Source: a virus
Virus record (IMG/VR): IMGVR_UViG_3300020156_000024
Length of the DNA: 64,000 nt
Strand: one strand, 5' to 3'
Shown here: one piece after another, positions 1 through 50,292 of the stretch
Numbering within the stretch: position 1 is the first letter of the stretch
How the letters are laid out: every line of letters starts with the position of its first letter
The notes under the pieces: generated by a model
What the model saw: the letters and a program-made list of their open reading frames with translations, nothing else
Told to the model about the DNA's origin: nothing
The model's database searches: none
Translations under genes and position numbers: made by a program

Positions 1-374
1 CAGCCGGGCCGGGCCCCGGCAGCGACCGGGAGCGCCCGTACGAAGGGGCGGTTGATGTCGGGGACGCGGAGGTCGTTGAGTTCGAGGTTCCGCGCCAGCC
101 GGTCGAACGATGCCGGATTGGGTTCGAGCGCGACCACATTCAAGCGCATCGCCAGCGCGAACCACAGGGTGTGGGTACCGATGTGCGCGCCGACATCGAC
201 GGCCGTGCCAGGCTCGAACGCGGTGATGCGGTGGCGGGCGTCGTCGAGGAGGTCCTTCTCGTACCAGGTGCCGCGGGAGATGATGCGGCCGATGTGGTCG
301 GTCTCATCGACCTCGATGCGCGCGGCAGGTGCGCCTTCGGCAGAGCGGCCGGCGGGGAGCGTGATCGTCTTCAT
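1..374 (-). CDS. FkbM-family SAM-dependent methyltransferase (3' end truncated by window)
   Basis: Manual translation MKTITLPAG...GTWYEKDLLD...AVDVGAHIGTHTLWFA...VVALEPNPASFDRLARNLELN; DVGAHIG and EPN motifs; ATGA overlap with upstream gene at 371-374; absent from the ORF track because no stop lies in the window. Confidence 0.85.
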   Translation of the reverse strand, partial: MKTITLPAGRSAEGAPAARIEVDETDHIGRIISRGTWYEKDLLDDARHRITAFEPGTAVDVGAHIGTHTLWFALAMRLNVVALEPNPASFDRLARNLELNDLRVPDINRPFVRALPVAAGARPG

Positions 375-1018
375 GACCGCCCCCGGGCGAGGGTGCGGCG
401 GCGGTTGGCCCAGTGGTGTACGGCCAGCGCGCCCGGGAACGGGCCGCGCTCGCGCGGCGTGCCGACATCGCTGTAGGAGTACGGGTAGAACAGGGCCTGC
501 GGCAGGACGGTGAGTTCGTCGCGGTGGCGGCGCCACAACCCGGTCAGGTACTGCGGGCCGGTCGAGACGTTGGGGCGCAGGCCACGGTGGTGCTCGACGG
601 AAGCGGGGAGGCCGGTGATGAGCCGGTCGATGAACGGGTGGCCCGGTTCGGTGCCGAGGATCGCGTTGTTCACCCACCGGTCCTGGGTCTCCCACGCGGC
701 GAACGCTTCGAGGCCCTTGATGGTGTCTTCGATGCTGGTGAGGCATTCGAAGTCGACGTCGACGTAGATGCCGCCGAACGCCCAGAGGATCTCGTAGCGG
801 AGCACGTCGGAGCGGAACTGCCACACCGAGGGAGCAGGGACGAGCTCCTCGGCGCGGTCGTACAGGTCGCGGTTGCGCATGACCGGGAGGCGGTCCTCGG
901 TCCACATGCGGTGCTCCCAGCCGGGGTGCGCTGCCTGCCACGTCTGGGTGTAGGCGGCGTACTCGGCGGGGAGCGGGTCGGGCCCGATCCATATCTGGTG
1001 CAGGACAGCGGGAATCAC
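371..1018 (-). CDS. Glycosyltransferase, GT32/OCH1-like (DXD sugar-binding)
   Basis: IPAVLHQIW N-terminus, SDVLRYEILWAFGGIYVDVD (DxD), NNAILG, STGPQYLT, AVHHWA motifs. Confidence 0.9.
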   Translation of the reverse strand: MIPAVLHQIWIGPDPLPAEYAAYTQTWQAAHPGWEHRMWTEDRLPVMRNRDLYDRAEELVPAPSVWQFRSDVLRYEILWAFGGIYVDVDFECLTSIEDTIKGLEAFAAWETQDRWVNNAILGTEPGHPFIDRLITGLPASVEHHRGLRPNVSTGPQYLTGLWRRHRDELTVLPQALFYPYSYSDVGTPRERGPFPGALAVHHWANRRRTLARGRS

Positions 1019-1212
1019 AGGACTGCCGCCCCCCGTCGACTCGCCTCGTCCAGGAGCTCGCGCATCCTCTCCTGGCTGACGGTTCCTGTTGCGGGGACCT
1101 CGAACGAGGCCACGGTGGACTGGCCGAGCTTCGCGTTGATGCTGCGGAGCTCGGCCAGGATCTCGGTGAGGATGTCCTCTGCGCCCTCGGGCGCCCCTGG
1201 CCGGGCGGACAT
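1015..1212 (-). CDS. Small hypothetical protein (65 aa) between capsid and glycosyltransferase
   Basis: ATG two nt after the capsid stop, GTGA overlap with the GT gene. Confidence 0.7.
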   Translation of the reverse strand: MSARPGAPEGAEDILTEILAELRSINAKLGQSTVASFEVPATGTVSQERMRELLDEASRRGAAVL

Positions 1213-1214
1213 CG

Positions 1215-2396
1215 TTACGAACCCACTCGGTCGCCGGTGGAGGCCACCGCGGACTTCGGGTCCATCAGCGTCCCGCCGAGGATGTGGCGGACCTTCCACT
1301 CGACGCTGTCGGAGTCGAAGTCGCCGTCAGTGGCGTCGATGAGCCCGCCGCCGACCCTCGTGGCGTTGGGGCTCTTCTGAAAGAGCTGCGGCGCTTCGTG
1401 CCCGATGAGCCGGCCGATCTCCATCGCCGGACGGCCGGAGTTCGGGTTGGCGAACAGGTACCAGGCCGTCGAGCCCGTGGCGGTGTCGATGGTCGGCAGC
1501 CACGGGTTGACGATCAGCGAGACCTTGTTCCGCATCCAGTTCGAGACCCGCAGTTGGTCGTTCTCGACGCCGTTCCCGCCGCCGTCCGCAGCGAGGATCT
1601 CGATGGCGTTGAGGATGTTCAGCGCCTTGACCTCGAGCGCCGGCGGGACCACGAGGGTCGCCGCGGAGACGAAGATCGGGTTGCCGTCGGCGTCGAGCTG
1701 CTCGCCGAAGATCGTCATGGCCTCCTGCAGGCCCGAGACGGTCAGCTGCGCGTCGGTCAGGTTGCCGTTCGGGGCGCCGAAGAACGGCGACGCGGGCCCG
1801 GTAGCGGTGGCGTACAGGGCGGTCGCGAAGCGCTCCTCGGAGCGGCGCGCGGCGTTGCCCAGCCGCTCGGGGATCGACGCGAACGCGTCCAGGTCGTCGT
1901 TGACCAACGTCTCCCAGCTGAGCGGGATGCGGCGGCCGAACTTGCGGACCTGGTACTCGTAGAAGCCGTCCGCGAGGGACGCGGCGGGGTACTCGGACTG
2001 CTCCGGGACCTCTGCGAGGACCGATTCGCCGCCGTCCAGAGTGAACCGCTTGACGCGACGGAAGTCGCGGACCCGGCCGGCCCGTGCCAGCGACGTCCAC
2101 TGGACGGGCATCTGCGCGTACTGCGCGAGCAGCTGGCGGTCGATGATGTCGCCGAAGAGGAACGAGAAGTCGGACCGGGTCATGTTCTCCTTGAAGGAGA
2201 GCGCGGCGTAGCTGTCTCCTTTGAGGACCTGGCGGTAAAGGTTGAACACCTCCATGAACGCCTTCTGGTAGCGCGGGTCCGCGCTGGCGCGCGGGCGGCG
2301 CTGGGTGAACGTCTTCGGGTCGCCCTTGAACAGCTCAGTCTCGTCGGCTTTCGCCTGGGAGTACGTGGCCACCTCAGGCAGCATGGTGTCGAGCAT
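1215..2396 (-). CDS. Major capsid protein (Mu gpT-like)
   Basis: Position after protease and DUF2190; MTRSDFSFLFGDIIDRQLLAQY, VRKFGRRIPLSWETLVNDDL motifs; ends ...STGDRVGS. Confidence 0.88.
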   Translation of the reverse strand: MLDTMLPEVATYSQAKADETELFKGDPKTFTQRRPRASADPRYQKAFMEVFNLYRQVLKGDSYAALSFKENMTRSDFSFLFGDIIDRQLLAQYAQMPVQWTSLARAGRVRDFRRVKRFTLDGGESVLAEVPEQSEYPAASLADGFYEYQVRKFGRRIPLSWETLVNDDLDAFASIPERLGNAARRSEERFATALYATATGPASPFFGAPNGNLTDAQLTVSGLQEAMTIFGEQLDADGNPIFVSAATLVVPPALEVKALNILNAIEILAADGGGNGVENDQLRVSNWMRNKVSLIVNPWLPTIDTATGSTAWYLFANPNSGRPAMEIGRLIGHEAPQLFQKSPNATRVGGGLIDATDGDFDSDSVEWKVRHILGGTLMDPKSAVASTGDRVGS

Positions 2397-2408: not shown

Positions 2409-2771
2409 TTAGTAACCGAGCTTGACGGGGATGATGGTGGTCGCGGCGTTGGCGACCGCGGCGAGCGCGTAGCCGAAGCGGACGCCGCCCGCCGCGGTGT
2501 TGGACAGCGCGCCGTCTGCGGTGGCGATGTGGACGATGTGCCCGACCGCGATCGCGCCGGCGTTGGCGTTGACCGGGAGGTCCCAGACGCCGTCGGTCTG
2601 GATCGAGACGCGGGAGACGCCGTCAGCGCCGACGAGCGGGTCGGTCTGCGCGACGGCGGGCAGCTGGTTGACCAGCACGGCGTCGCCGGACTCCGGCGCT
2701 GCCGGGGCGGTGATGGAAGCGGTGGGCACGGCGAACTTGCGGCCGTACTGGTAGACCTGGTTGAGCGCCAT
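2409..2771 (-). CDS. DUF2190-family capsid cement/decoration protein
   Basis: 120 aa, GVWDLP...AIAVG...GYALAA pattern; usual neighbour of gpT-like capsids. Confidence 0.8.
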   Translation of the reverse strand: MALNQVYQYGRKFAVPTASITAPAAPESGDAVLVNQLPAVAQTDPLVGADGVSRVSIQTDGVWDLPVNANAGAIAVGHIVHIATADGALSNTAAGGVRFGYALAAVANAATTIIPVKLGY

Positions 2772-2774
2772 TGG

Positions 2775-4604
2775 TTAGCGTCCCTTCACAGCGATGCGGG
2801 CGGAGTTCTCGTCGAGGCCGAGCTCGGCGAAGCCCTCGGCGAGCTGGACGTCGAAGTCGGGCACGCCCTCGCCCTCGACGAAGCCGCCGAGACCGGAGGG
2901 GCGGCCCGCGCCCTGGGATTCCAGGACCGCCGCGGCGTAGCCCGCTTCGGACTTGATCGAGGCGGCGACGAGCGCGGTGAGTGCCTCGGCGTTGACCTGG
3001 CCGTCCTCGGTGAAGGGGACGCGGCCGTTGACCGCGGCGTGGACGCGCGGCGTGATGGCGGTGATGAGCGAGTCGGGCATGCCGGAGGCGTTCTCGGCGA
3101 GCGTCTTGTCGACGGCGGCGCGGCCGGCTTCGTTGCCTTCCATGAGCTGGAGGCGCGCGAGCGCTTCCTTCATGCGGGCCTCGGCGGTGCGCTGCGCGGA
3201 CTGCGACTCGGACAGCGCCTCGGTCAGGGCCGTGCAGCGGGTGCGGAACTGGTCGCGTTCGGCGGCGACGACGGCGACCTCTTCGGCAACGGGGGTGCCG
3301 TTCGGGGTCCCCGCCGGGCCGGGCTGGACGCCCTCAGCAGTGGTAGATCCACTCATCGTGGACTCTCCTTCTTGGATTGGGTGGAGTGCGGTCGGCGGGG
3401 AGCCGTCCGCGTTGGCCGTCGCCGCGGTGGGCGAGTTCTTGAGCGCCTGGTCGGCGCGGTCGAGGTCGGCGGCCATCTCGGTGACGGCCAGCCGGGCGGG
3501 AGCAGTGAGGGCCGCGGCTTCCTCGGCGGGGGTGTCGACGGGGACGTACGTGGTGCGGCGGTCGACTTCGACGGGGTCGCCGGTGAGGGCGATGCCGTCC
3601 TCGTCGGTGTAGGCCTGCCGCCAGGTCCCGTCGTCGTTGCCGTAGATGACGAAGCTCTCGTCGGGGTCGTAGTCCCACACCCAGGAGCCGTCTTCGTCGT
3701 CGCTGCCGTGCGCGGCGGCGACGGCTCGCTGGATCCGGGCGCGGGTGTCGCCGGTGAGGGCTTCATCGGCGGCGATCTCGCCGTCGGGGGCGTCGTCCCA
3801 GGGGCCGCGCTGGAACAGCTGCGGCGCATCGGCTTCGACACGGGCGGTCCACGCTTGGAGTCCGTCGCCGATCGCGGAGGACAGGGTGATGCGCTCGGCG
3901 CGGGTGAGGCGGCCGTCGCCGTACATGTCGTCGGCGTACTGCGTGAGCGCGAGGTGGAGCCGGGATTCGAGCCAGGTCCCGACGGAGCGGGCCTCGGTGA
4001 CCTTTCCGGCCTGGATCGATTCGAGGACGTCCAGGAGGGCGCCGCCGGCGGCGGGCTTGGTCACGAAATCCACGGACCGGCCCTGCTCGATGGTGTTGAC
4101 GATGTTGCCCTTGCGGCCTTCGCGCTCACCGTGTTCGGCGGTGACGTAGGCGCGGATGGACATGCCGATGACGGGGATGCCTTCCTCGGCTTCGGCTTTC
4201 GCCATCTCGATCAGGGGGGTCCGCCAGGGCTCGAACAGGCGCGTCCATGCGACGAGCGACTTCGTGTCTTCGTCCCAGCGGGCGTCCTCGGTCTGGATCG
4301 CGGCGAGCTTCTCCACCGATCCGGCGGGGCGCTCGTAGTCCTCTTGCTCGGTGGCGTGGTCGATGAACGCCTGCATGCCCTTCGGCCAGGCGGCCGCGCC
4401 GTCGCGCTTCAAGACCTCGGCGGGGTAGTAGTTCCCGTTGAGGGACCACCCGGCTTTAATGAGGCGGATCAGCATGCGGCCGGGCCGTGTCTTGGAGACT
4501 TCGGCGACGCCGGCTTCGGCGATGGTGAGGCGTTCGGGTGCGGCCACGGACTCGGAGACGGCACGGCGTCGCTGCGTCCCCATAGGGCTGCGCTTACGCG
4601 ACAT
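2775..4604 (-). CDS. Capsid maturation protease fused to scaffolding region
   Basis: N-terminal GWSLNGNYYPAEVL...FIDH...SVDFVTKPAAGG protease-like domain, acidic/coiled-coil C-terminus; position between MuF and capsid. Confidence 0.8.
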   Translation of the reverse strand: MSRKRSPMGTQRRRAVSESVAAPERLTIAEAGVAEVSKTRPGRMLIRLIKAGWSLNGNYYPAEVLKRDGAAAWPKGMQAFIDHATEQEDYERPAGSVEKLAAIQTEDARWDEDTKSLVAWTRLFEPWRTPLIEMAKAEAEEGIPVIGMSIRAYVTAEHGEREGRKGNIVNTIEQGRSVDFVTKPAAGGALLDVLESIQAGKVTEARSVGTWLESRLHLALTQYADDMYGDGRLTRAERITLSSAIGDGLQAWTARVEADAPQLFQRGPWDDAPDGEIAADEALTGDTRARIQRAVAAAHGSDDEDGSWVWDYDPDESFVIYGNDDGTWRQAYTDEDGIALTGDPVEVDRRTTYVPVDTPAEEAAALTAPARLAVTEMAADLDRADQALKNSPTAATANADGSPPTALHPIQEGESTMSGSTTAEGVQPGPAGTPNGTPVAEEVAVVAAERDQFRTRCTALTEALSESQSAQRTAEARMKEALARLQLMEGNEAGRAAVDKTLAENASGMPDSLITAITPRVHAAVNGRVPFTEDGQVNAEALTALVAASIKSEAGYAAAVLESQGAGRPSGLGGFVEGEGVPDFDVQLAEGFAELGLDENSARIAVKGR

Positions 4605-5805
4605 GGGATACCTCCTGGGACTGGTTGCGGTCGGCGAGTACGCGGAGGTCCCGCACGGGTGTCGGTTGGTTGGAGCGGCGCCATTGGGGGGTGTCGCGCC
4701 AGGTGGCGAGCTGGTCCCATGTGACGGAGCCGGAGCGGTACAGCTCGAGGCGTCCGGGGCCCATGACCTGGAGTTGGTCGGCGGCCGAGAGCTTGTTGAA
4801 GGAGGCCTCGCCGTTCGGAAGCAGACTGGGCGGTTCGGGTGCGGTGATCCCGAGTTCTTTCCAGGACGCGAGCTTCGGCAGGCGCGTGCACCGGCCGCGG
4901 GGGTGGTCGTCGGGGCCGGGCTCGGACGTGGGGTAGGTGCGGCCGTGCCGTGACCAGCAAGCCGGACAACAGGTTGAGTCGAGGCGGGCGTACCACTGCC
5001 AGGCGGTCACCAGATCGCTGTTGGCGCGGTGGATGTACGCCGACGCGGCACGGTAGGCGTCGAGCATCTCCGTGCGGGAGATCGTGAGCGCCCGGGTGAG
5101 TCCGCCGTTGAAGGCGCCTTCGACCCGGTTGACCATGTCGCGGGCGACGGGGATCGGGTTGTCGCCGACGATGATGCCCTCGATCAGCGCGGCCCGCATC
5201 GCGGCGACGGCTTCGTCGGAGAGGGGGATCGTGTCGGCGTGGATCTGCCCAGCAGCTCTCGCGATGATCGCGGCGAGGGCTGAGGGTTCGAACCGTCCGG
5301 CGACGATCCCGGCAACAACCGCGGGGCCGAGAAGGTCAGCGGCTGTAGGTGGGGGGACCATGCCGCCGTCGGTGACGTCCGGCGGTACTTCGTCGGCTTC
5401 GGCGAGGCGACGCAGAACGTGCCCGGCCAGCGCTTCCGCTTTGGTCTCGGGCGCTTGGGAGCCGATGATCCGCGGCTCGTACTCCGCGTCAGCCTCGACG
5501 ACTCGTCCGGCGCCGGCGCTGGCGGTCGTATCGGTCTCGGCGGCGAGCGCCGTGAGTGCGGTGCTGGAGGCGTCGAGGGCGTTCATCGCGGCTTCGTTGC
5601 GCGCGATCTGGTGCACGGTCGGCCAGCGCCCGTCCTTGACGGCGAGCGCGGCGAGTTGGGTCATGGCCCGTTCCCAGGCGGGGGCGAGCTTGTCCCAGGC
5701 GGTCACCCACTGGGTGGTGAGGTGCCGGTCGGCGTTGTCGGTCTCGGTGCCGATGTCGGCCCGGAGCTTCCGGGTAAGGGCGAGGGTGGAGCGGGTGACG
5801 GCCAT
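4594..5805 (-). CDS. Head morphogenesis / minor capsid protein (MuF, SPP1 gp7-like)
   Basis: RALTISRTE...WQWYARLDSTCCPACW...DHPRGRC motifs; follows portal. Confidence 0.88.
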   Translation of the reverse strand: MAVTRSTLALTRKLRADIGTETDNADRHLTTQWVTAWDKLAPAWERAMTQLAALAVKDGRWPTVHQIARNEAAMNALDASSTALTALAAETDTTASAGAGRVVEADAEYEPRIIGSQAPETKAEALAGHVLRRLAEADEVPPDVTDGGMVPPPTAADLLGPAVVAGIVAGRFEPSALAAIIARAAGQIHADTIPLSDEAVAAMRAALIEGIIVGDNPIPVARDMVNRVEGAFNGGLTRALTISRTEMLDAYRAASAYIHRANSDLVTAWQWYARLDSTCCPACWSRHGRTYPTSEPGPDDHPRGRCTRLPKLASWKELGITAPEPPSLLPNGEASFNKLSAADQLQVMGPGRLELYRSGSVTWDQLATWRDTPQWRRSNQPTPVRDLRVLADRNQSQEVSHVA

Positions 5806-5808
5806 CGC

Positions 5809-7524
5809 CTACCCGTCCTCGTCGTCCTCTTCGTCGGCAGGCGGGCCGTTCTCGGCGGGGTCGTCGTCAGGAGGATCTTCGGCGTCTTCCATCGGGCCGG
5901 GGCCCGCTGCTGTCGGGTCTTGGCCGCGGCGGGCGAGCGCCGCAGCTTCAGCGCCAGGGCCGAGCGGTGGACCCTTGGGCCACTGGAACTCACCGGTGTC
6001 GTCATCGAGCATCTGCTCAACGAGCTCGTCGACGTCCTTGACGCCGAGTGCGATCAGCACCATGCGCAAGATCAGCTCAGGCGGGACCGTGTTCGTGGAC
6101 GACGCGTCAACAATCGCCTTCACGATCACGCCGACGTCCGTGTCCGTCAGGTCCGGCCAGTCGATGTCGATCTGCGTGGACGTGTCTCCGTCGAGGGTGA
6201 CGGTCTCCAATGACGTGTAGGGGTCCCGCGTGATCGTGCCCTTCAGCGGTCCCTGCGGTGCACGGACGGCCTCGGTGATCATGTAGGAGAGGATTCGCAG
6301 GAGCATCGCCGTGTGCAGCTGGCGGCGCTGGCCCATGACGAGCTCAGTCGGCTTGTCGAGGGTCTCGGCGGTGGCGCGGTTGCCTGTCGTGCCGGGGTCG
6401 CCGAGGAGTGCCACAACCGAGAGGCTGAGCGCGGCGGCGACCATCGCGGCCATCGGCCGGCCGGATTCGGCATCGATCGTCGCCCCGGTCTTCGGGATAG
6501 CTTCGAGGACAGCGTCCATTGGGGTGACCGCGGTGCCGCCGACGTCGAGCGCGCGACGCGAACCCGGGTCGAGCGGTGCCGCTGCGGCGAGCGCCTGGCG
6601 GGCCTGCGCCCGGGCCGAGCCCTTCGAGGTGAGCTTCCACGCGAACTTCGACAGGCTCTTCATGAGCGTCGCCCAGTCCTCGAGGAACACCTTGTAGGCG
6701 TGCGCCCAGTCGATCGCCGCATACGCGTCGGGGACGCCTCGGTCCCACTCGGCGGGCTTGTTCACGGCCTCGTGGTAGACCGGCGCATCCCACCGGACCT
6801 TGATGCCGGCGTAGGTGCCGCGTCGGGTGGCGGGGCGGTAGTCGATCGCGGGGTACAGCTCGTCGCGGACCTCGGTGACCTGGGAGCCGTCGGCCATGGG
6901 GGTGACCTGCGTCCACCGGCGGCGGTAGAACCACGGCTCCGAGTTGTCCTCGGGGTTGTTCAGGACCTCATAGATCTCGTCAGCGGGGAGAGATCGGACC
7001 TGCACGTAACCAGTGCGGGGGTTGGTGAACAGGGCGAGGAACTTCTCACCGTCATGGAACAGGGTGTGCTCGAGCTCGTTCTGCGCCTGCGCCGACGTCA
7101 GCACACGCTGGTTCCCGGGGTCGTTGAGGAACGCCGCGACGACCGCCTGGACGTCCTGCTCGCCCTGCTGTTTGCCGTTGGCGCGCGCCGTGATCTCCAC
7201 GCCCTGGCCCCACACGTACGCGGAGCGGAGCGCCGCACCGCGTTTCAGCAGCGGGTTCTTCAGGGTGAAGAGGCGGCAGATCATGCGCATCTGCCGCAGG
7301 CCCTCAGGAGAGAACTCCTGCTCGGCCGCGGCGACATAGTTGACCCACCCGGGTTCGTACAGCTGCCGTTGCAGGTCGGCGACGGACTCGGCGAGGAGCT
7401 CGTTCTGGTTGCGTTCGAGGGTGAGCTGCTCCCGGATGGGGGCGATGATGCGGTCCCGGATCGGGTAGACCACACGGGTCTGTACAGCCTCGACAGCGCG
7501 CTGGACGGGGACCGGCAGGCCCAT
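5809..7524 (-). CDS. Portal protein
   Basis: 571 aa directly after terL; GVPD...GNRATAETLD motifs; acidic tail. Confidence 0.82.
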   Translation of the reverse strand: MGLPVPVQRAVEAVQTRVVYPIRDRIIAPIREQLTLERNQNELLAESVADLQRQLYEPGWVNYVAAAEQEFSPEGLRQMRMICRLFTLKNPLLKRGAALRSAYVWGQGVEITARANGKQQGEQDVQAVVAAFLNDPGNQRVLTSAQAQNELEHTLFHDGEKFLALFTNPRTGYVQVRSLPADEIYEVLNNPEDNSEPWFYRRRWTQVTPMADGSQVTEVRDELYPAIDYRPATRRGTYAGIKVRWDAPVYHEAVNKPAEWDRGVPDAYAAIDWAHAYKVFLEDWATLMKSLSKFAWKLTSKGSARAQARQALAAAAPLDPGSRRALDVGGTAVTPMDAVLEAIPKTGATIDAESGRPMAAMVAAALSLSVVALLGDPGTTGNRATAETLDKPTELVMGQRRQLHTAMLLRILSYMITEAVRAPQGPLKGTITRDPYTSLETVTLDGDTSTQIDIDWPDLTDTDVGVIVKAIVDASSTNTVPPELILRMVLIALGVKDVDELVEQMLDDDTGEFQWPKGPPLGPGAEAAALARRGQDPTAAGPGPMEDAEDPPDDDPAENGPPADEEDDEDG

Positions 7525-7536
7525 GCTCGCCCCCTT

Positions 7537-9042
7537 CTAATAGAGGCTGATGGACTGCTCGGCGTCGTCGTCTTCGAACACGTCGCTCTCCAGGAGCAGC
7601 GGGTTGATGAGCAGCCGGTTCAAGGCCTGCGACATGGCGTCGACCCGGTCATCGTGTTTCGCGCGCGGGAAGCCGATCGATTCTTCGATGAGGTCGTCGA
7701 CCCACGGCGCCAGTTCAACGGCGGGGACGTGGACGTTCCCGGCTTCCAGGAGCGGCGACACGGCGGCGGCCCGCGCCACTTTGGAGCCTTCGGGCTCGAC
7801 CGGGATCAGCCCGGCAACGGTGCGTTTCAGCATGTTGATGACCGCGGTCCCGTTCGCTTTGTCCTCGACGTACTTCGCGGTCGCCTGCGGCCAGCGTGCC
7901 GCCAGGGCCCGGACCGCCGAGCAGGTGCCGACGAAGTCCATGTGCCCATGGGATTGATCGAGGAGGTATGCGTCGATGCCGCGTCGGCCCCAGATCTGCC
8001 CGCACACGTAGTCGGAGCCGTCCGTGCCCTTGAACGCCATATCCCAGGACGCAACGATCTCGTCGAAGCCGAGCGCGACCCGGCTCCCATCGGCCTGTTC
8101 GATCCATTGAGGTTGTTCGTAGGCGTGTTCGGTGAACCATTCGCGTTGGAAGACGTTCCCCGACTCGGGGGTGGGGCGGCCCTGATAGAGCGCATTCCAG
8201 GAGCGGGAGCCGACCTCGCGCTTGGTTTGCTGCCAGTCGGCCTCGGATCGTTCACGCGCCGAGAGCATGAACTCGCCGACGTCGCGGCCGAGAGGGTCCG
8301 TCTCGCCTTCAGCGGGCTTGTGGTCGGCCTGGGCGGGGATGTTGATGACGCGCCAGTCGATCCCGTCGTCGCGTTCTTGGAGCCACCCGGTGAGGTCGTC
8401 GTGGCGCCAGCGGGTCTGGATGATGACCACGGCGACACCGGGACCGAGTCGGGGAATTGCAACCTTGGTCCACCACTGCTCGACGGTCTCGCGCCAGGCG
8501 TCGGAGTCGGCCTGCTCGGCGTCCTTGTACGGGTCGTCCACGATGAGCAGGTCGACTGGCTTGCCCGTGAGCGAACCCCTGATGCCCGCGCAGTAGACCG
8601 AGCCGCGGTGACCGGCGAGCTTCCATTCGTGGGCGGCCGAGGAGTTCTGGCGGACGTTGATGCCGAGCGTTTCGGTGTGGTTGGTGATGTCGTCGCGGAT
8701 GGCCTGGCCCCACCGGCGGGCGATGGTGTGGATGTAGGAAACGATCGCGATCCGCAGCCACGGGTACCGCGCGAGCATCCAGGTCGGGAACCGGCGGCTG
8801 GTGCGTTCGGACTTGCCTTCCTGCGGGGCCATGGAGATCATGAGGCGCTTGCAGCGGCCTTCGGCGACGTCGACGAGCGCGGAGTCGATGAGGTCGAGGG
8901 CGGGTGTCTGGTTGGTGGAGGGGTCGAGGTCGAGCGCCATGTCACCGGGTGTGGCCCAGGGGATGTCGCGCGGCACGGGCGGCTCGAAGTGCTGGACGGC
9001 CGCTGCGATGACGTCGGGGTCGAAACCGAGGGTGTCCATCAC
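7537..9042 (-). CDS. terL: Terminase large subunit
   Basis: MAPQEGKS Walker A, LLIVDDP Walker B, IQTRW, SWDMAF, VEDKANG, HDDRVDA nuclease motifs. Confidence 0.95.
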   Translation of the reverse strand: MMDTLGFDPDVIAAAVQHFEPPVPRDIPWATPGDMALDLDPSTNQTPALDLIDSALVDVAEGRCKRLMISMAPQEGKSERTSRRFPTWMLARYPWLRIAIVSYIHTIARRWGQAIRDDITNHTETLGINVRQNSSAAHEWKLAGHRGSVYCAGIRGSLTGKPVDLLIVDDPYKDAEQADSDAWRETVEQWWTKVAIPRLGPGVAVVIIQTRWRHDDLTGWLQERDDGIDWRVINIPAQADHKPAEGETDPLGRDVGEFMLSARERSEADWQQTKREVGSRSWNALYQGRPTPESGNVFQREWFTEHAYEQPQWIEQADGSRVALGFDEIVASWDMAFKGTDGSDYVCGQIWGRRGIDAYLLDQSHGHMDFVGTCSAVRALAARWPQATAKYVEDKANGTAVINMLKRTVAGLIPVEPEGSKVARAAAVSPLLEAGNVHVPAVELAPWVDDLIEESIGFPRAKHDDRVDAMSQALNRLLINPLLLESDVFEDDDAEQSISLY

Positions 9043-9688: not shown

Positions 9689-9716
9689 GTAGACACCTCC
9701 CGAGCTGGTGTGTGGG

Positions 9717-9792
9717 TGCCGCACCCGGGATTCGAACCCGGACTGGACTGGTTTTTGAAGCCAGCGCGTCTGCCAAGTTGCGCCAGAGCGGC
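9717..9792 (-). tRNA. tRNA-Leu(CAA), 76 nt, short variable loop, CCA not encoded
   Basis: Cloverleaf: acceptor GCCGCTC/GTGCGGC, D-arm with TTGGCAGAC, anticodon loop TTCAAAA, T-arm CCGGG-TTCGAAT-CCCGG, discriminator A. Confidence 0.88.
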
Positions 9793-22437: not shown

Positions 22438-22655
22438 CGGGGGTTCCCTTCGTTGGTGGAGAGGTTGGCGAGGAAGTCGGCGGCGAGACCGCCGAAGTCC
22501 GTGGGTTCGACCGCGGCGCCGGCGTGCTCCCACCACGTCGCCCACGCGTGCCCGCAGTAGCAGCGGTACGTCGCCTTCCCAGTCGACTCGTCCCACGACG
22601 TGGCTTCGTTGTCCCGGCGCAGGCAGCGCGGGCACCCGTCCTTGCGGCCGGTCAT
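22434..22655 (-). CDS. Small Zn-ribbon protein
   Basis: CPRC...YRCYCGHAWATWW. Confidence 0.65.
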   Translation of the reverse strand: MTGRKDGCPRCLRRDNEATSWDESTGKATYRCYCGHAWATWWEHAGAAVEPTDFGGLAADFLANLSTNEGNPR

Positions 22656-24061
22656 CGGGTCGCTCCGAAGTCATCGAAGTGCGCCATGGACGCGAACCGG
22701 GCGACGTGCAGCTGCGCGGCGAGCGGGATGGTGCCCTGCGCGCCGTGGCGGTGCTTGGCGACGATGAGGTCCGCTTCGCCTTTGCGGACGGTGTTCTGGT
22801 TGGTGGCCTCCTCGCGGTGCAGGAGGAAGATCACGGCGGCGTCAGCTTCGAGCGCCCCGGATTCGCGCAGGTCGGAGATTTGCGGCAGCTTGTCGGCGCG
22901 CTGCGTCGGGCCCCGGTTGAGCTGCGCGGCCACCAGGATCGGAATGTCTAGCTGGGACGCGAGGACTTTCAGGCCGCGAGAGATCGCGGCGATTTCGTTC
23001 TCACGAGACTGGGACTTCGGGCCCTTCACGAGCTGCAAATAGTCGATGACGAGGAGCCGGAGGCCATGGCGGCGCTTCCACCGGCGGGCGAGTGCCTGGA
23101 TGGACGCGAGCGACTGGTCGGTGTTGTGGTCGACCCAGAAGGGCGCGTCGGCGGACATGCCGGCCTGCTGCGCGAGTTTCGACCAAGCGTGGTCGGTGAG
23201 TTTCCCGGTGTTTAGTTCCTTCAAGGGGATCGCCAGGCGGGAGGAGATGACCCGGTTGTAGATCTCGGGGCGTTTCATCTCCAACGACGCCACCAGGGTC
23301 GGCATGTTGAGGTCGAGGCCGACGTGCGCGGCGATCTGCATCGAGAGGGTCGACTTGCCGTCGCCGGGGCGGCCGCCGACGATGACGAGGTCGCCAGGGC
23401 GGAGCCCGTGGATGAGCCCGTCCAGGTCCCCGAGGCCGGTGGGGATCGCACGTATCGCGGCGGGGTCGTCGGCGGCTTCGATAGCTTCCATGCCTTCGGT
23501 AACCATGTCGGCCCACCGGACCGGGCCGTCGTCGGTGTCGGGTTCGTCGAGGCTGTCGAGGCGGCGGCGGATCTCGTCGAGCTTCGTGTCGGCGTCGGTG
23601 GGGGTGGCGACGACCTGCGCGACGCCGGCTGCGAACGCGGCGAGACCGCGGCGGCGCGCCATCTCGGCAACTCGGAGCGCGTACCAGGTGGCGGAAGGCC
23701 CGGCGGGTGCTTCCGCGAGGAGGTGCGCGATGTACTCGCCGCCGCCGGCGCGGATGAGCTCGTTCGAGTCGACGAGTTTCGACACCACGGAAGCGGGACT
23801 GACCGGGGCGCCTGCCGCGTGGAGCGTGTGGAGGGCACTCCAGATCAGGCCGTGGCGGTGGGCATCGAAGTCGTTGGCGGTCAGCTGGATCTCGTCGAGG
23901 AGCGAGCCGTTCGCGATGCACGCTCCGAGGACCGCGGACTCAGCGCCGTGGTCGGCGAGGGTGGGCTTCTCGGCGCCGCGGTCGCCGATTGGGCGGCCGT
24001 CAGCGAGGATGCCGTTGGCGGGCTGCTTTTCGAAGTCGCCCCACACGTCGGTGTCGGTCAT
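22652..24061 (-). CDS. dnaB: Replicative DNA helicase (DnaB family)
   Basis: AESAVLG N-domain, GGRPGDGKST Walker A, VIDYLQL, AAQLNRG, SDLRESGALEADA, VAKHRHG. Confidence 0.95.
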   Translation of the reverse strand: MTDTDVWGDFEKQPANGILADGRPIGDRGAEKPTLADHGAESAVLGACIANGSLLDEIQLTANDFDAHRHGLIWSALHTLHAAGAPVSPASVVSKLVDSNELIRAGGGEYIAHLLAEAPAGPSATWYALRVAEMARRRGLAAFAAGVAQVVATPTDADTKLDEIRRRLDSLDEPDTDDGPVRWADMVTEGMEAIEAADDPAAIRAIPTGLGDLDGLIHGLRPGDLVIVGGRPGDGKSTLSMQIAAHVGLDLNMPTLVASLEMKRPEIYNRVISSRLAIPLKELNTGKLTDHAWSKLAQQAGMSADAPFWVDHNTDQSLASIQALARRWKRRHGLRLLVIDYLQLVKGPKSQSRENEIAAISRGLKVLASQLDIPILVAAQLNRGPTQRADKLPQISDLRESGALEADAAVIFLLHREEATNQNTVRKGEADLIVAKHRHGAQGTIPLAAQLHVARFASMAHFDDFGATR

Positions 24062-24648
24062 TGCTTCCTCCGGTCGGTGCCGTTGAGCACGACCACACGG
24101 CACATACCGAACAGTCGTGACGGGATGCGGGGGTCCATGCGCTCGGCCATGTCGTCGGGGCCGAGGTTCGAGGTGAAGATCGTGGGGAGCAGGTTGTCCC
24201 AGCGGGTGTTGATGAGGTCTTCGATGACACCGGAGTTCCACGACGTGATGTGGGTGGCGCCGAGGTCGTCGAGGACGAGGAGATCGGCGGTGAAGAACCG
24301 GTCGGTGCCGTCCCCGCCGGGGCGGGCGTCGTTGAGGAGCCGCGCGTGCGTAGTGGTGGCGACCTGCTTCAGGACGCCCCGGGCGGCGAGTCCGCGGACG
24401 ACGTACTGCAGGGCGGCGTAGGCGTTCCCGGTCTTGCCGGTGCCGACCTCACCCCCGAGGAGCAGCGAGCCGGAGGAGCCGTCGATCGCGTCGTCAGCCC
24501 AAGCTTTGACGGCCGGGTGTTCGATCTGGTAGCCGCGGTAGCGGGCCGGGATGTGGTTGGCGACGATGTGCTCGGCCTGCTCCAAGCGGAGCGCGGCCAT
24601 GTCGGCGTGGTGCACCGACGTCGGTTCGTTGGTGGGTTCGCTGGTCAT
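24058..24648 (-). CDS. DnaC/IstB-like ATPase (helicase loader)
   Basis: GEVGTGKT Walker A, LLVLDDLG Walker B, TIFTSNL, RIPSRLF. Confidence 0.88.
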   Translation of the reverse strand: MTSEPTNEPTSVHHADMAALRLEQAEHIVANHIPARYRGYQIEHPAVKAWADDAIDGSSGSLLLGGEVGTGKTGNAYAALQYVVRGLAARGVLKQVATTTHARLLNDARPGGDGTDRFFTADLLVLDDLGATHITSWNSGVIEDLINTRWDNLLPTIFTSNLGPDDMAERMDPRIPSRLFGMCRVVVLNGTDRRKQ

Positions 24649-26982: not shown

Positions 26983-27355
26983 CGGGCACCTCCTGGGCGG
27001 CCTGGTCCATGAGGACCCTGGCGTGGCAGTGGTCGACCTCGCCTGGTTCAGGTATCGGGCACGGACACGCGAGGTCGCGGCCGGCGAGCTCGACGCGGAT
27101 CTGTTCGTCAGTGGGGTAGTTCGAGCCCAGGCGCATCATCACCAGGGCCGCGGCGGGGTCGATGACGGTCGCGGAGACGATGCGGCGCACCGCGAGCCCG
27201 ACCGCGAACTGGGCTGCCGCCGCGGCGCGGTCGGGGATGCCGGGCTCGCCGACCTTCCACGGGTTCCCATAGGTCGAGGTGCGGTCGACGATGACGGCGT
27301 CGCCCTTGCGCCAGTCCTTCTGGCGGAGGCGTCGGATCCGCTTCGGGGTGCTCAT
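26972..27355 (-). CDS. DUF4326-family protein
   Basis: VDRTSTYGNPW...ELAGRDLACPC...CHARVL. Confidence 0.85.
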   Translation of the reverse strand: MSTPKRIRRLRQKDWRKGDAVIVDRTSTYGNPWKVGEPGIPDRAAAAAQFAVGLAVRRIVSATVIDPAAALVMMRLGSNYPTDEQIRVELAGRDLACPCPIPEPGEVDHCHARVLMDQAAQEVPGDR

Positions 27356-29013
27356 GCTGCAAGCACCATCCGATCGAGGTCGGCGCCGGTGATGGCCTCG
27401 ACGAGTGCGGACATGATCAGCTCGGCGACAGGCGGTGTGACGGCGTTTCCGTACTGGCGGACACGGTCGCGTTTGGAGCCGAGCACGATGTAGTCGGAGC
27501 CGAAGGCCATGGCCGCGCCGATCTCGTGCGGTTCGAGCATCCGGAACAGGACGTCGTTGATGTCGACGTCGCCGGTGACCAGCGCGTACCGGTCGCGGGT
27601 CGACAGGGTGCCGACCGGCTCATGGACGGTGCGGGCGTTCCCGTTGCCGTAGTAGGGCACCAGGAGGTGTTCCCAGGTGACGAGCGACTGCTTCCCGGAC
27701 GCGGTCAGGGTCCGCATGGGCTCCTGAACCGACGTGGACATGCGGGCGCTGTTGCCCTCGGTCGTGTTGTTGCGCACGACCATCGCCGGCCAGTCGGCGG
27801 CGGCGACGCCGAGGTGGTTGCCGGACGCCGTCACCGATGCGGTCGGGTCGAGGATGCTGCGCGAGGCCGAGGAGCCGCCGCGGAGTTCGACCATCCACGG
27901 CATCCACGCCAAGCCGGTCTCGTTGCGCGCGGTCTGGGTGCGCAGCGGGTTGTTCGCCGTCCCCGCTTCCTTCCCCACTCGGCCCTCGACCGGCACCAGG
28001 AGCGGGGGAATGGCGAGCGCCTTGGTGGCGGTGGTCGTCTGGGTGGTGAGCGGCGCGTCGGCGGGCCAGGTGCGGACGCCGGGCCGCCGCTCGAAGGTGT
28101 TGCCCGCGGCTTCGAGGGTGATGGGCCGCGCGAACTTCTCGAGCCCAGCCTCGATCCGGGCGAGGGTCTTCGCCGCGAGCGGCTTCTCGCGGTCGCCGAT
28201 CCGCGTTCCCGGGAGCGCCCAGTCGATGGCGACGGCAGCGGGCAGCGTCTCGGGTTCGACGGCGGTGCCGCGGCAGGACGTCCTCGGGCAGCGCCACACG
28301 TACTGGCTGCGGTACCGGCCCATGTCGGCGCCTTGACGCTTGAACGACTGGACCGCTTCGACGGTCTGCTCGCACGAGGGGCACCAGGCTTCGGGCCGCA
28401 GCCACTTGTCCCAGTCCGGGGTGCGGCCCAGGCTGTTGTGCCAGTACGCGACGTACAGGCGGTCGCGGGACTGAGGTGCGCGCGCCGAGCGCGTCCCGGC
28501 GGCGTGCATCGAGTTGAACGCGATCGTGCGGGTCCGGTACCCGAGCTTGTGAAGGTCGCCCAGCCACCGGTCCCAGTCCTTCCAGGCCCGGACCTCAACG
28601 ACGTTCTCCACGACGCCGGCCAAGACCAGGCCGCCGCGCCGCTGCACGCCCGAAAGGTAGAGCGGGACTTCGTCCATGAGGGCCCTGGACCGTTCGGCTT
28701 CCTCGTCGCGCTTGGGCTCCATGCCCGGAAGGGTGGCCGCTGACCATTCGAAGTCGCGGCGCTTTCCGCGCGCGCTGCTCCACTGCGGGCACTCCGGTGA
28801 GGCCCAGAAGATGTCGCACGTCGGCCAGGTGTCGACCGGCGCGAGCCGGATGTCGCCCTGGTAGTGGTCGGCGCCCGGGAAGTTCGCGGCATGGGTCTCA
28901 ATGGCCCGCTGCCAGTGGTTCGCCGCTCGAGCGACGGTGACGCCGGGGACGGAGTCAATCCCTTGGCTGCTACCGCCGGCGCCGCAGAACCAGTCCATAA
29001 CAGTGAGGGTCAC
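27352..29013 (-). CDS. DNA (cytosine-5)-methyltransferase
   Basis: DWFCGAGG (I), ASPEC (IV), VENV (VI), PQSRDRLY (VIII), RQYGNAV (X). Confidence 0.92.
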   Translation of the reverse strand: MTLTVMDWFCGAGGSSQGIDSVPGVTVARAANHWQRAIETHAANFPGADHYQGDIRLAPVDTWPTCDIFWASPECPQWSSARGKRRDFEWSAATLPGMEPKRDEEAERSRALMDEVPLYLSGVQRRGGLVLAGVVENVVEVRAWKDWDRWLGDLHKLGYRTRTIAFNSMHAAGTRSARAPQSRDRLYVAYWHNSLGRTPDWDKWLRPEAWCPSCEQTVEAVQSFKRQGADMGRYRSQYVWRCPRTSCRGTAVEPETLPAAVAIDWALPGTRIGDREKPLAAKTLARIEAGLEKFARPITLEAAGNTFERRPGVRTWPADAPLTTQTTTATKALAIPPLLVPVEGRVGKEAGTANNPLRTQTARNETGLAWMPWMVELRGGSSASRSILDPTASVTASGNHLGVAAADWPAMVVRNNTTEGNSARMSTSVQEPMRTLTASGKQSLVTWEHLLVPYYGNGNARTVHEPVGTLSTRDRYALVTGDVDINDVLFRMLEPHEIGAAMAFGSDYIVLGSKRDRVRQYGNAVTPPVAELIMSALVEAITGADLDRMVLAA

Positions 29014-37971: not shown

Positions 37972-39552
37972 TCAACTCTCAGACGGTGCCCACCGCCGCC
38001 ATTCAAGCCCCACTCGCTCCGGATCGAACTGGCGCGTCCCCCGGATTCCCCGCTTGAGCTTGAGCTCGGAGAACAGCGACCGGATGACGTCCCGCCGGCC
38101 TGAAACCGGGAACCCGGCCCACATCTCGCGGACCAGGGCCTCTGCCGTCGCTCGGTCTGACGCCCCCAGCATGCCGGTGAACGTCCTGAGAATGGGCGGG
38201 ATGCCGATGTTGCGCGCCGCGGCTTCGGCTGCTTCGATCTGCGAGGTGAGCTCCAGCTTCCGCTCACCGTATTGATCGAGGGTCAAGATCTTCCGCTTGT
38301 ACCCCTCATACGCCTCATCGAGCGTTGCTCGGAGCGCATCCGCCTCGGCCTGGGCGATGATCACCACCGCGTCATCTTGTACGACTGCTTGCGACAGCAG
38401 GTCGGGTTGGCTGAGGCGATGCACGACCATGTCGGTGATGTAGTCGTCAACCCAGTCCTGCCGCACCGACACGCACCCGCTCTTGCCTGTCGCCGCGCCG
38501 CCGGCGTCCAGCCCGGAGCAGTGGTAGCGCGGGCTCTGTTTCTTCAAGGGCTGGTGGGCGATTACGGCCCCACATTCACCGCAGGTCATGAAACGCGTCA
38601 ACAAGTGGACTGCCTTCCCAGGGCTCTGGCTGGCGTGAGCTTTTGAGCGTTCGTTCATCACGCGCTGCGCAGCCCAGTACAGCATCGGCAGCGTCTCGGA
38701 CAGGGGCGGCCACTGGGCGTCTAGGAGCTCATTGGAATGCGGGTCGCGGCGCTTCCCAATGTGCGCGGGGTTCTTGAGCGTGCGGCGAAGGGCCTCAGTC
38801 GACCACGTCGCGCCGCGGCGCAGGACAGGAACTCGTCGGGGGTCATCCTGGGGAAGGTCGATGCGCGAGTTCAGATCGCGCATGATCGCGGTCAACGCTT
38901 CACCACCGGCCACGAACCGTTCGAAGATCTCGACGACCACCCTGCTCTCCTGCGGCTCGGGGATCTGGCGGAGGAGATCACCGGTGTCCGGGTCGTACTC
39001 TCGCTTGTGGCCGTAGCAGAGAGGCCCGTCGGGCCGGCCGAGCTCTCGAATCGCCTTCTTGTCGCGCTTGTTGCGCAGCGAGGTCTTCGCCGACTCCATC
39101 TCGGCATCCACGCCCTCATCCGCAAGGGTCTTCCAGTCCCGAGGGTTGCGGACATCGTAGGTGCGCCCGTGTGTGACCACCCGGATCGGCACGGCCAGAT
39201 CGCGGCACAGGGCGAGAAACTGGAGCCACTCGACGCTTTCACGGGACCCGCGCGAGGACTCCCAGAAGACCACGAAGTTGATCTTCCCGTCCTCGACATC
39301 GCGAACGAACCGGGGCCAGTCGACGCGGACCACCGTCGAGTGGCGGGAGGCCGGCATGTTGTTGTCGTGGTCGTAGACCTCTTTGATGAGCACTGGGCGG
39401 CCTTCATGGCTGCCGAGCTCTGCAATGTCGATACGGGCGTCGCTGACCTGCTGGTCGACGGAGGCTCGCTCGCGGAGCATGCGCTTCCGCGTGTCCTTGG
39501 AAACCCGGGCGTAGATGCCTGCCTGCCACGCTGCGAGCAGAAGATCACTCAT
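37972..39552 (-). CDS. int: Large serine recombinase (phage integrase)
   Basis: YARVS catalytic motif, WESSRGSR, LCYGH, recombinase domain, CGECG Zn ribbon, coiled coil. Confidence 0.95.
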   Translation of the reverse strand: MSDLLLAAWQAGIYARVSKDTRKRMLRERASVDQQVSDARIDIAELGSHEGRPVLIKEVYDHDNNMPASRHSTVVRVDWPRFVRDVEDGKINFVVFWESSRGSRESVEWLQFLALCRDLAVPIRVVTHGRTYDVRNPRDWKTLADEGVDAEMESAKTSLRNKRDKKAIRELGRPDGPLCYGHKREYDPDTGDLLRQIPEPQESRVVVEIFERFVAGGEALTAIMRDLNSRIDLPQDDPRRVPVLRRGATWSTEALRRTLKNPAHIGKRRDPHSNELLDAQWPPLSETLPMLYWAAQRVMNERSKAHASQSPGKAVHLLTRFMTCGECGAVIAHQPLKKQSPRYHCSGLDAGGAATGKSGCVSVRQDWVDDYITDMVVHRLSQPDLLSQAVVQDDAVVIIAQAEADALRATLDEAYEGYKRKILTLDQYGERKLELTSQIEAAEAAARNIGIPPILRTFTGMLGASDRATAEALVREMWAGFPVSGRRDVIRSLFSELKLKRGIRGTRQFDPERVGLEWRRWAPSES

Positions 39553-39994
39553 AGCCCTAAATATAGTTGGCCCGCACGACCACGGGGGCATCGGGGTCCT
39601 ACCCCTATATTACGAATGCACGGAAACCCGCCTGGTTCAGTCGTGAGCCTAAGTCGCCCCGGTGGGTGACCCACCGGGGCGGCCCGCCATTGCCGCAGTG
39701 CTGGCACGCCACGACCCAGGCCCTTCCAGTTTCGACCCGGCCCCCCGAGGTGCATATCGGCCGATCGGATGACAAGGGAGCCCGACCGCCGGTGCTGGCA
39801 CACGCGTGCGGTCGGGCTCGCTCCTTGAGGGTGCCCTTCAAGATCAACTCTCAGGCGCTGGCTTGTTTACATAGGGTGACGGCCTGGCCGCGGTCCTGGG
39901 GAGGCGCGACCAGGCCGGGCCCCGGCCCCCCACCAGCCGGCCGGGGAGGGCCGCCGCCCCGCCCCACAGGACGGCGGCCCCTCGGGAGGCAGGT

Positions 39995-49437: not shown

Positions 49438-50292
49438 CTAGTAGGTGTCGCGGTGGCGCACAGTGAGTCGCGCCTCGGTGTTGTAGTCGTCGGCCTCGAA
49501 CCGGATCAACCCTGAGCCGGTGAGCAGCGGCCAGTCGCCGTACGCGTCACGCAGACGTGAGGTGGTGCCGTTGAGGGTCACGAGTTTCCGCTGCGTGTCG
49601 ATGTCGAGCCACTCCCCGACGCCGAGGACGGTGTCGAAGTGGAGGGTCCTTCCCCCGGCGGCGTCGATGACGGTGATGCGGGGGCGGGTGACCGGCCCGT
49701 CGATTCGCAGCAGCAACCGCGCCGGCGTGGTTCCGAGGTTGGTGATGTCGGCTTCGCCGTCGGCAACGATCGAGTAGAACGTCAACCCGCCCATGGTGAA
49801 CGGGGTTGTGAAGCCACCAGACCGCTTGAGGAGGCCGATGGTGGCGGTGTATTCGGTGCCGGAGTAGATCGCCGGGTCGGGGCAGAACAGCTCCGCTTCG
49901 ACCCACGCTTTCCCGGTGCGGGCCCGCTGGTTGCGTAGCCGGGCTTTACGGGGTCGGGCGTACATGAGGTATTCGGTGCCCGCGGCGTTCCAGCGGATCT
50001 CGACCTCGCTGCCGGTGCGGACGGGTGCGAGTGCGGCGTCCAGGGCCCACCAGGCGGCCATCAGCTCCTGCCAGGAACCGGTGTGGATGCCCAGCTTCAT
50101 GGGGACGGCGGTGGCCGCGCGCCATTCGGCACCGGACCATTCCCCGTCACCCCAGGCGATGTCCCCGCCCTGGGAGGCGTTCGTGTCCCGCTCGAACGGC
50201 TCGAACTCGTTCACCCGGTAGACCGTGCCGTGGTGCAAGACCAGGGGGGTGCCGCCGGGGCGGGTGATCGAGATCTGTCCGTCGGTCAGCAT
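49438..50292 (-). CDS. Distal tail protein (Dit)
   Basis: Follows tape measure; CPDPAIYS, NLGTTPA...IDGPVTRPRI motifs. Confidence 0.8.
   Translation of the reverse strand: MLTDGQISITRPGGTPLVLHHGTVYRVNEFEPFERDTNASQGGDIAWGDGEWSGAEWRAATAVPMKLGIHTGSWQELMAAWWALDAALAPVRTGSEVEIRWNAAGTEYLMYARPRKARLRNQRARTGKAWVEAELFCPDPAIYSGTEYTATIGLLKRSGGFTTPFTMGGLTFYSIVADGEADITNLGTTPARLLLRIDGPVTRPRITVIDAAGGRTLHFDTVLGVGEWLDIDTQRKLVTLNGTTSRLRDAYGDWPLLTGSGLIRFEADDYNTEARLTVRHRDTY

Follow-up and report, generated by a model that had tools for sequence, protein, structure and literature searches.

A 64,000-nucleotide (nt) stretch of viral DNA (IMG/VR record IMGVR_UViG_3300020156_000024; here called the window, to which all coordinates refer unless prefixed with a contig id such as L001) carries at its left end the head genes of a prophage whose host is, by protein identity, the soil actinobacterium Glycomyces. 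Judged from its genes, this prophage probably bears a cassette for O-glycosylation and O-methylation of its own virions, acting in late growth around the C-terminal Ser of both capsid and tail-tube subunits. Virion glycosylation in bacteriophages was reportedly first shown in 2023, in a few mycobacteriophages, where it is said to shield the particles from antibodies; to our knowledge, these are so far the only phages in which a glycan coat on virion proteins has been demonstrated by experiment. A first-pass annotation of the window had proposed a capsid-coupled glycosylation and methylation module, and the proposal has gained support from a homologue of Che8 gp110 and Corndog gp38 encoded next leftwards, from a Ser-ending tail tube, from the recurrence of the cassette behind unrelated capsid families, and from soluble enzymes encoded in an uninterrupted late operon. 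The genes at the left end of the window are as follows.

1215-2396, minus strand: major capsid protein (393 amino acids (aa); PF25209 Phage_capsid_4, E 7.5e-45; PF10124 Mu-like_gpT, E 4.8e-6).
1218-1244, minus strand: codons, read from the sequence, for the capsid tail ASTGDRVGS including the terminal Ser, the proposed O-glycosylation site.
1015-1212, minus strand: 65-aa open reading frame (ORF) between the capsid gene and GT32, starting 2 nt past the capsid stop.
371-1018, minus strand: GT32-type glycosyltransferase (215 aa; PF04488 Gly_transf_sug, 48.2 bits against a cutoff of 23).
1-374, minus strand: first 124 codons of an FkbM-family S-adenosylmethionine (SAM) methyltransferase gene that runs off the window edge.

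The order from capsid through the 65-aa ORF and the GT32 enzyme with its DxD motif to FkbM had been read correctly in the first-pass annotation, all genes lying on the minus strand with Pfam support for the capsid and both enzymes. The junctions are likewise as described, with a GTGA overlap at 1018-1015 (GT32 GTG start and stop of the 65-aa ORF) and an ATGA overlap at 374-371 (FkbM ATG and GT32 stop), and the capsid tail, ...KSAVASTGDRVGS, ends in the ASTGDRVGS with terminal serine that had been pointed out. In the GT32 protein the PF04488 match spans residues 18-100, the DVD (DXD) motif lies inside YVDVDFE, and a maximum 19-residue hydropathy of 1.05 indicates no membrane segment. The FkbM fragment in the window scores 16.7 bits when taken alone, under the Pfam cutoff; the full-length protein of 232 aa (L001:10645-11343) reaches 40.8 bits for PF05050 Methyltransf_21 (cutoff 22.7), matches the methyltransferase family phrog_8156 (E 1.8e-18) and has the glycine-rich SAM-binding motif VDVGAHIG. 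The 65-aa ORF has no family match in Pfam or PHROG profile searches. In Glycomyces tenuis, a recognisable counterpart of its N-terminal half lies upstream of GT32, and the ORF is not present in the other cassette lineages.

The leftward continuation was read from a 31.5-kb Logan contig (L001) identical to window positions 1-1300. Left of window position 1, a third enzyme gene, encoding a 391-aa protein, overlaps the FkbM gene by 8 nt and is followed by head-tail connector genes (a 122-aa adaptor, DUF6093, an HK97 gp10-like protein and a 146-aa protein), and then by genes for a tail-tube protein (PF25595), chaperones, the tape measure and Dit. In full, the module runs capsid, 65-aa ORF, GT32, FkbM and 391-aa core glycosyltransferase, and the window contains the first four of these genes. 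Extension in this direction, for further glycosyltransferase genes and the tail-tube C-terminus, had been recommended in the first-pass annotation and yielded both, the 391-aa enzyme and a tail tube ending in ...AIVAS. Gene spacings from the capsid to the adaptor gene range from -8 to +9 nt, reading frames are intact, and the GC content and third-position GC content (GC3, 0.86-0.92) of the cassette genes match those of their neighbours. No promoter-like or terminator-like site was found in L001 8000-15200 with an E. coli-type consensus, which is weak for an actinobacterium, and all three enzymes lack membrane-spanning segments (maximum 19-residue hydropathy ≤ 1.43). The cassette sits in an unbroken structural operon that is probably expressed late.

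The host assignment comes from the capsid, which is 99% identical to a protein of Glycomyces sp. NPDC021274 and 76% identical to one of Glycomyces tenuis; no near-identical phage was found in the phage collection. In a search of sequencing runs, the DNA was recovered in full from one soil metagenome run, its possible source, and in small shares from others. A Glycomyces tenuis prophage has the same cassette, with identities of 83% for GT32, 61% for FkbM, and 76% and 49% for the N-terminal and C-terminal parts of the 391-aa protein. Between its capsid stop and the small ORF preceding GT32 lies a stretch of ~800 bp (L008:11167-12000) with stops in all three forward frames, which the window prophage lacks; it may be inserted DNA or the remains of a gene.

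Homology points to the 391-aa enzyme as the central transferase. Its N-terminal 215 residues match the 'glucosyltransferase' family phrog_854 (E 2e-38), and BLASTP relates it to Che8 gp110 (30% identity, E 1e-13), to Corndog gp38 (35%, E 2e-13) and to phiAsp2 Pas35 (39%, E 4e-38), its closest homologue in a cultured phage. A tblastn search of the phage collection returned 640 records, nearly all actinophages (614 Mycobacterium, 21 Gordonia and 2 Actinoplanes). Che8 gp110 (32.3 bits) and Corndog gp38 (24.5 bits) both pass the 24-bit cutoff of PF01755 (glycosyltransferase family 25); the 391-aa protein has no Pfam match at E ≤ 0.01 and so is not assigned to that family, its kinship to the two mycobacteriophage enzymes being drawn from direct BLASTP, the PHROG profile and the GT-A fold instead. 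This fold is seen in an AlphaFold (AF2) model of the core domain with a predicted local distance difference test score (pLDDT) of 91.7. A QDD motif is invariant in the core enzyme, and the catalytic motifs are invariant across the family. The solved structures nearest to the model are POMGnT1, GnT-I, GLT25D1 (collagen galactosyltransferase), ppGalNAc-T2 and Mimivirus R655, and the modelled fold is closest to transferases that act on proteins and glycoproteins. Mimivirus R655 and R699 (PDB 9crz and 9dzs, by PDB titles) are, like the core enzyme, viral GT-A enzymes and stand among its top structural neighbours; however, identity is only 7-12% at a template modelling (TM) score of about 0.5, and they belong to a eukaryotic virus with another genetic context and other glycans. 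Both presumably glycosylate the surface fibrils of their own virus.

In the full-length model, the core domain is followed by a small, conserved alpha/beta domain (about residues 225-285), an acidic linker rich in Pro and Ala that is disordered (residues 287-342), and a conserved three-helix module at the C-terminus (residues 351-390). Residues 216-391 gave weak matches to small viral proteins, and nothing stronger, in an Atlas look-up. On a bolder reading set out below, the small domain, acidic linker and three-helix module of the Glycomyces lineage could tether the enzyme to assembling particles.

Che8 gp108-gp110 are given as virion glycosylation genes (PMC11256854, PMC12363180, citing Freeman et al. 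2023), Che8 gp110 and Corndog gp38 are called the two essential glycosyltransferases for capsid glycosylation (PMC12363180, citing Freeman et al. 2023), and the mycobacteriophage glycans are placed at the C-termini of both subunits, capsid and tail tube (PMC12619734, citing Freeman et al. 2023). Like the window prophage, Che8 (Cluster F1) has a homologous small GT-A enzyme, gp110, last in a tandem set that also holds another glycosyltransferase and an O-methyltransferase domain, and both its capsid (...KTGS) and its tail tube (...SDGS) end in GS. By Pfam, gp108 is a fusion of GT2 with Methyltransf_24/TylF, gp109 is GT2-like and gp110 GT25-like. In contrast to the window prophage, in which the genes stand in the head operon, those of Che8 are found at the extreme right of the genome; its partner enzymes are of GT2/TylF-type rather than GT32/FkbM, its host is Mycobacterium, and gp110 (211 aa) is without the 175-aa C-terminal extension of the core enzyme described here.

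Corndog (Cluster O), with the O-methyltransferase gp35 and the glycosyltransferases gp36-gp38 (PMC4351075, PMC11600133), resembles the window prophage in that the cassette lies inside the virion structural operon, a methyltransferase is combined with glycosyltransferases, the core gp38 is homologous, and the capsid (...LVGS) and tail tube (...KGDS) end in Ser. It differs in being a lytic phage with a prolate head, in its TylF/Methyltransf_24-type methyltransferase and in its GT2-like extra glycosyltransferases (by Pfam, gp35 is TylF-type, gp37 GT2-like and gp38 GT25-like). The order glycosyltransferase, methyltransferase, core is shared by Pas33-Pas35 of the Actinoplanes phage phiAsp2 (AY576796) and by gp43-gp45 of the Mycobacterium prophage McProf, and in phiAsp2 the cassette also follows the major head protein gene at a distance of a few genes, with translational coupling. 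In both, however, the enzymes ahead of the core homologue are GT2 and then Methyltransf_24 by Pfam, and pairwise BLASTP of the window GT32 and FkbM proteins against these partner enzymes found no similarity; the phiAsp2 head protein, moreover, ends in ...QVREL, not in Ser. As far as the records show, the phiAsp2 and McProf cassettes are known from genes alone.

From the Pfam comparison with Che8, Corndog, phiAsp2 and McProf, it follows that the Glycomyces cassette keeps the architecture and the core enzyme, with both partners swapped. It has the core homologue, the tandem partners with the core last and the Ser-ending subunits of Che8/Corndog-type actinophage virion O-glycosylation. Its partners are rare in the isolated-phage collection (GT32-like in 11 records and FkbM-like in 5), where no isolated actinophage has the FkbM type.

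The link between cassette and C-terminal Ser was examined in the capsid and the tail tube of the window prophage (...DRVGS and ...AIVAS). Among tail tubes of the PF25595 family, ...IVAS is found in all three cassette-bearing loci (the window prophage, L007 and L008) and a terminal Ser in none of the 24 relatives without cassette; further cassette-bearing tail tubes from metagenomes end in ...VVAAS (L097, L098) and ...IVGGS (L108). A metagenome scan with the core enzyme gave 80 loci; many contigs are short, so the partner counts are minimum values: a GT32 homologue in at least 34, an FkbM homologue in at least 31 and a Methyltransf_24 homologue in at least 15. With few exceptions, GT32 comes first, 0-2 methyltransferases follow and 1-4 core enzymes stand last, an order that recurs in dozens of contigs. 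Directly upstream of the metagenome cassettes stands a major capsid protein gene belonging to any of four different Pfam families:

P22_CoatProtein (P22_Coat) capsids before the cassette, ending in ...TLGS (L113), ...LETS (L155) and ...PSSA (L136).
Phage_capsid_4 capsids before the cassette, ending in ...RTSS (L157) and ...NTGS (L126).
HK97 (PF05065) capsid before the cassette, ending in ...GSGS (L139).
SU10_MCP capsid before the cassette, ending in ...DSNS (L108).

Including that of the window, seven of eight cassette-preceding capsid lineages have a terminal Ser, whereas among background ORFs 32 of 304 have one (10.5%; Fisher p = 2e-6). All four Pfam-confirmed tail tubes of cassette loci, from three families, likewise end in Ser (p = 1.6e-4). 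An internal control is offered by the second prophage of the window, which has no cassette: its capsid ends in ...ASQT and its putative tail-tube protein (TIG domain only) in ...YTYV.

The capsid family of the window prophage is less telling by itself. Its short Gly/Ser/Thr tail is found family-wide, and the terminal Ser of the capsid, although present as the first-pass annotation had said, is a weak clue when taken alone, being common in the family without the cassette; it was dropped as a cassette marker within this family. The tail-tube tail and the cross-family comparison were relied on for this reason. In a survey of capsid relatives for an adjoining cassette, in line with another of the earlier recommendations, the cassette was confined to Glycomyces prophages among 80 genome loci. 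In the capsid homologues (P0003-P0122), short variable tails follow a conserved ...DPKSAVAS core. Many of these are N-G-[ST]-G-[SA], like an N-X-S/T sequon, and others end in PGQ or PGA.

What the sequences show are the genes present, their homology and fold, their operon structure and the association of the cassette with C-terminal Ser; the acceptor residues, the enzyme order, the sugars and the biological benefit (virion shielding or surface properties) are inferred. Translational coupling downstream of the abundantly translated capsid gene would supply catalytic amounts of three soluble cytoplasmic enzymes. The core enzyme would then transfer a sugar from a nucleotide sugar to the exposed C-terminal Ser, or a nearby Ser/Thr, of the capsid (...DRVGS) and the tail tube (...AIVAS). 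GT32 would add a further sugar and FkbM would O-methylate a sugar hydroxyl, such that released virions may bear short methylated O-glycans.

Several observations weigh against virion glycosylation by this cassette. The core glycosyltransferase adjoins the capsid gene in 2 of 30 capsid-relative genomes, both of them Glycomyces. Terminal GS occurs in 52 of 120 capsid homologues and terminal Ser in 28 of 61 capsid relatives without cassette, so that the capsid Ser is not cassette-specific. The tail-tube counts are not phylogenetically independent, since the cassette-bearing tail tubes nearest to that of the window prophage are each other's closest relatives, and some metagenome loci (L134, L147 and L164) have a cassette with no recognisable capsid gene adjoining. 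The promoter scan, by virtue of its E. coli-type consensus, is weak evidence in an actinobacterial host. Finally, the core-enzyme family is not exclusively viral, because in each of the two Glycomyces chromosomes a distant paralogue (about 31% identity, 363-444 aa; L179:8846-10180 in G001 and L180:9368-10459 in G002) stands among ordinary host genes (Kdp ATPase, a major facilitator superfamily transporter and ricin-lectin proteins).

Gtr-type serotype-converting systems consist of the membrane proteins GtrA, GtrB and GtrC, are expressed in the lysogen and lie near the attachment site. With these and other O-antigen-modifying systems the cassette shares phage-encoded glycosyltransferases in a prophage; unlike them, its enzymes have no membrane segments and are encoded in the late head operon, which sets it apart from the Gtr type. 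The enzymes could modify a glycan of the Glycomyces cell envelope and not the virion, for example to block superinfection or change the serotype, as temperate phages commonly carry glycosyltransferases for host surface polysaccharides (PMC12619734), enzymes of the GT32 and FkbM families typically serve in glycan biosynthesis and the host chromosomes encode the distant paralogue. Such a role appears improbable when set against the position of the genes between capsid and head-tail adaptor, in overlapping or near-abutting frames and with no promoter-like site by the E. coli-type consensus, on account of which the enzymes would be silent in the lysogen. It also fits poorly with the lack of membrane segments and of any flippase or GtrA-like partner, with the occurrence of the cassette behind capsid genes of four Pfam families, and with the homology of the core enzyme to enzymes reported to glycosylate virions.

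It is similarly unlikely that the enzymes act late on another target, for instance bases of the phage DNA, a small molecule or a different virion protein (cement, portal or fibres). DNA-hypermodifying phage glycosyltransferases are well known (PMC12619734, citing Pyle 2024), McProf gp43 has a weak TET-associated-glycosyltransferase match, and the acceptor residue proposed here is one that we infer; yet DNA-modification genes normally stand in replication modules and not behind the capsid gene, no hydroxymethylase or TET-like gene adjoins the cassette, and the association with a terminal Ser on both capsid and tail tube would be hard to explain.

Accessory genes associated with the capsid concentrate at the capsid-adaptor junction. 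In capsid relatives this junction is variable, with gaps of 70-3800 bp and unrelated inserts, including 430-550-aa proteins of unrecognised type. The big inserts of relatives are mostly not glycosyltransferases; GT2 domains were found in L045 only, in a double-GT2 protein. Elsewhere the junction holds a ConA-like lectin (L058), a polysaccharide-deacetylase protein (L051) or a Gp80 fibre-like protein (L011), and three loci have 526-548-aa junction proteins without Pfam match (L013:11557-13167, L020:12316-13896 and L034:12196-13842). That the cassette is an inert passenger, a moron picked up recently at a recombination hot spot and now functionless, would suit this variability but is very improbable given intact frames with GC3 like that of the neighbours, enzymes 61-83% conserved between prophages with 76%-identical capsids, catalytic motifs invariant across the family and a gene order conserved in dozens of contigs.

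With virion O-glycosylation as the preferred reading, the locus places a virion-glycosylation-type cassette in a different actinobacterial order. The concept of such a cassette is not new, because methyltransferase and glycosyltransferase cassettes within structural operons have already been described for Cluster O phages (PMC4351075, PMC11600133). The GT32 plus FkbM design in a structural operon, put forward in the first-pass annotation, is indeed present; it is not unique, in view of the Cluster O cassettes and of the frequent pairing of GT32 with the core enzyme in metagenomes. New here are the combination of GT32 with FkbM, the extended core enzyme and the Glycomyces host, together with comparative sequence evidence suggesting that this form of the cassette occurs widely after capsid genes of various kinds, with C-terminal Ser as a signature. 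The different enzyme make-up, GT32 and FkbM with a conserved core, implies a different methylated glycan.

A bolder reading, possible but one that we lean against, is that a C-terminal Ser, typically ...Gly-Ser-COOH, serves as a portable acceptor tag read by one phage GT-A family (Che8 gp110/phrog_854) in no fewer than four families of capsids and three of tail tubes. If so, interchangeable partners (GT32 or GT2, FkbM or TylF-type, 1-4 core paralogues) may diversify the glycan, and virion glycosylation may be widespread among high-GC soil phages and not peculiar to mycobacteriophages. The corresponding sequence rule, a core transferase plus a C-terminal Ser, could, if true, allow glycosylated virions to be predicted from sequence alone. 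Antibody shielding makes virion glycosylation relevant to phage therapy.

Variant core-enzyme arrangements occur in several metagenome loci (L122, L130 and L131, e.g. L130:8478-11351; L126:6727-9636; L132:7877-10735). Some cassettes have four tandem core-enzyme paralogues and others a single 950-970-aa open frame containing the core domain; such multiple or enlarged core enzymes suggest rapid glycan diversification.

Upstream of the capsid gene, the head region of the cassette-bearing prophage (prophage 1) comprises the following genes.

7537-9042, minus strand: large terminase (Pfam Terminase_6N/6C).
5809-7524, minus strand: portal, named by position and without Pfam match.
4594-5805, minus strand: MuF-like head protein (PF04233).
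2775-4604, minus strand: 609-aa protein with an N-terminal head-maturation-protease region (phrog_15531, E 6.6e-22, residues 42-199).
2409-2771, minus strand: capsid cement/decoration protein of 120 aa, just upstream of the capsid gene (PF09956 Phage_cement_2, E 3.2e-12).

The remainder of the 609-aa protein is probably a scaffold. A tRNA-Leu(CAA) gene lies inside prophage 1 just upstream of the terminase genes (9715-9792, minus strand), and the early region encodes a DnaB-type helicase and a C-5 cytosine DNA methylase (22652-24241 and 27352-29013). A large serine recombinase at 37972-39591 (Resolvase, Recombinase and Zn-ribbon domains) is probably the integrase marking the right end of prophage 1. 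The second, different prophage, without glycosylation cassette, lies in 42000-64000 on the minus strand and includes these genes.

60575-61855, minus strand: terminase.
58958-60565, minus strand: SPP1-type portal.
57771-58958, minus strand: minor capsid protein.
56276-57118, minus strand: capsid (PF25209).
50292-52559, minus strand: 755-aa tail protein.

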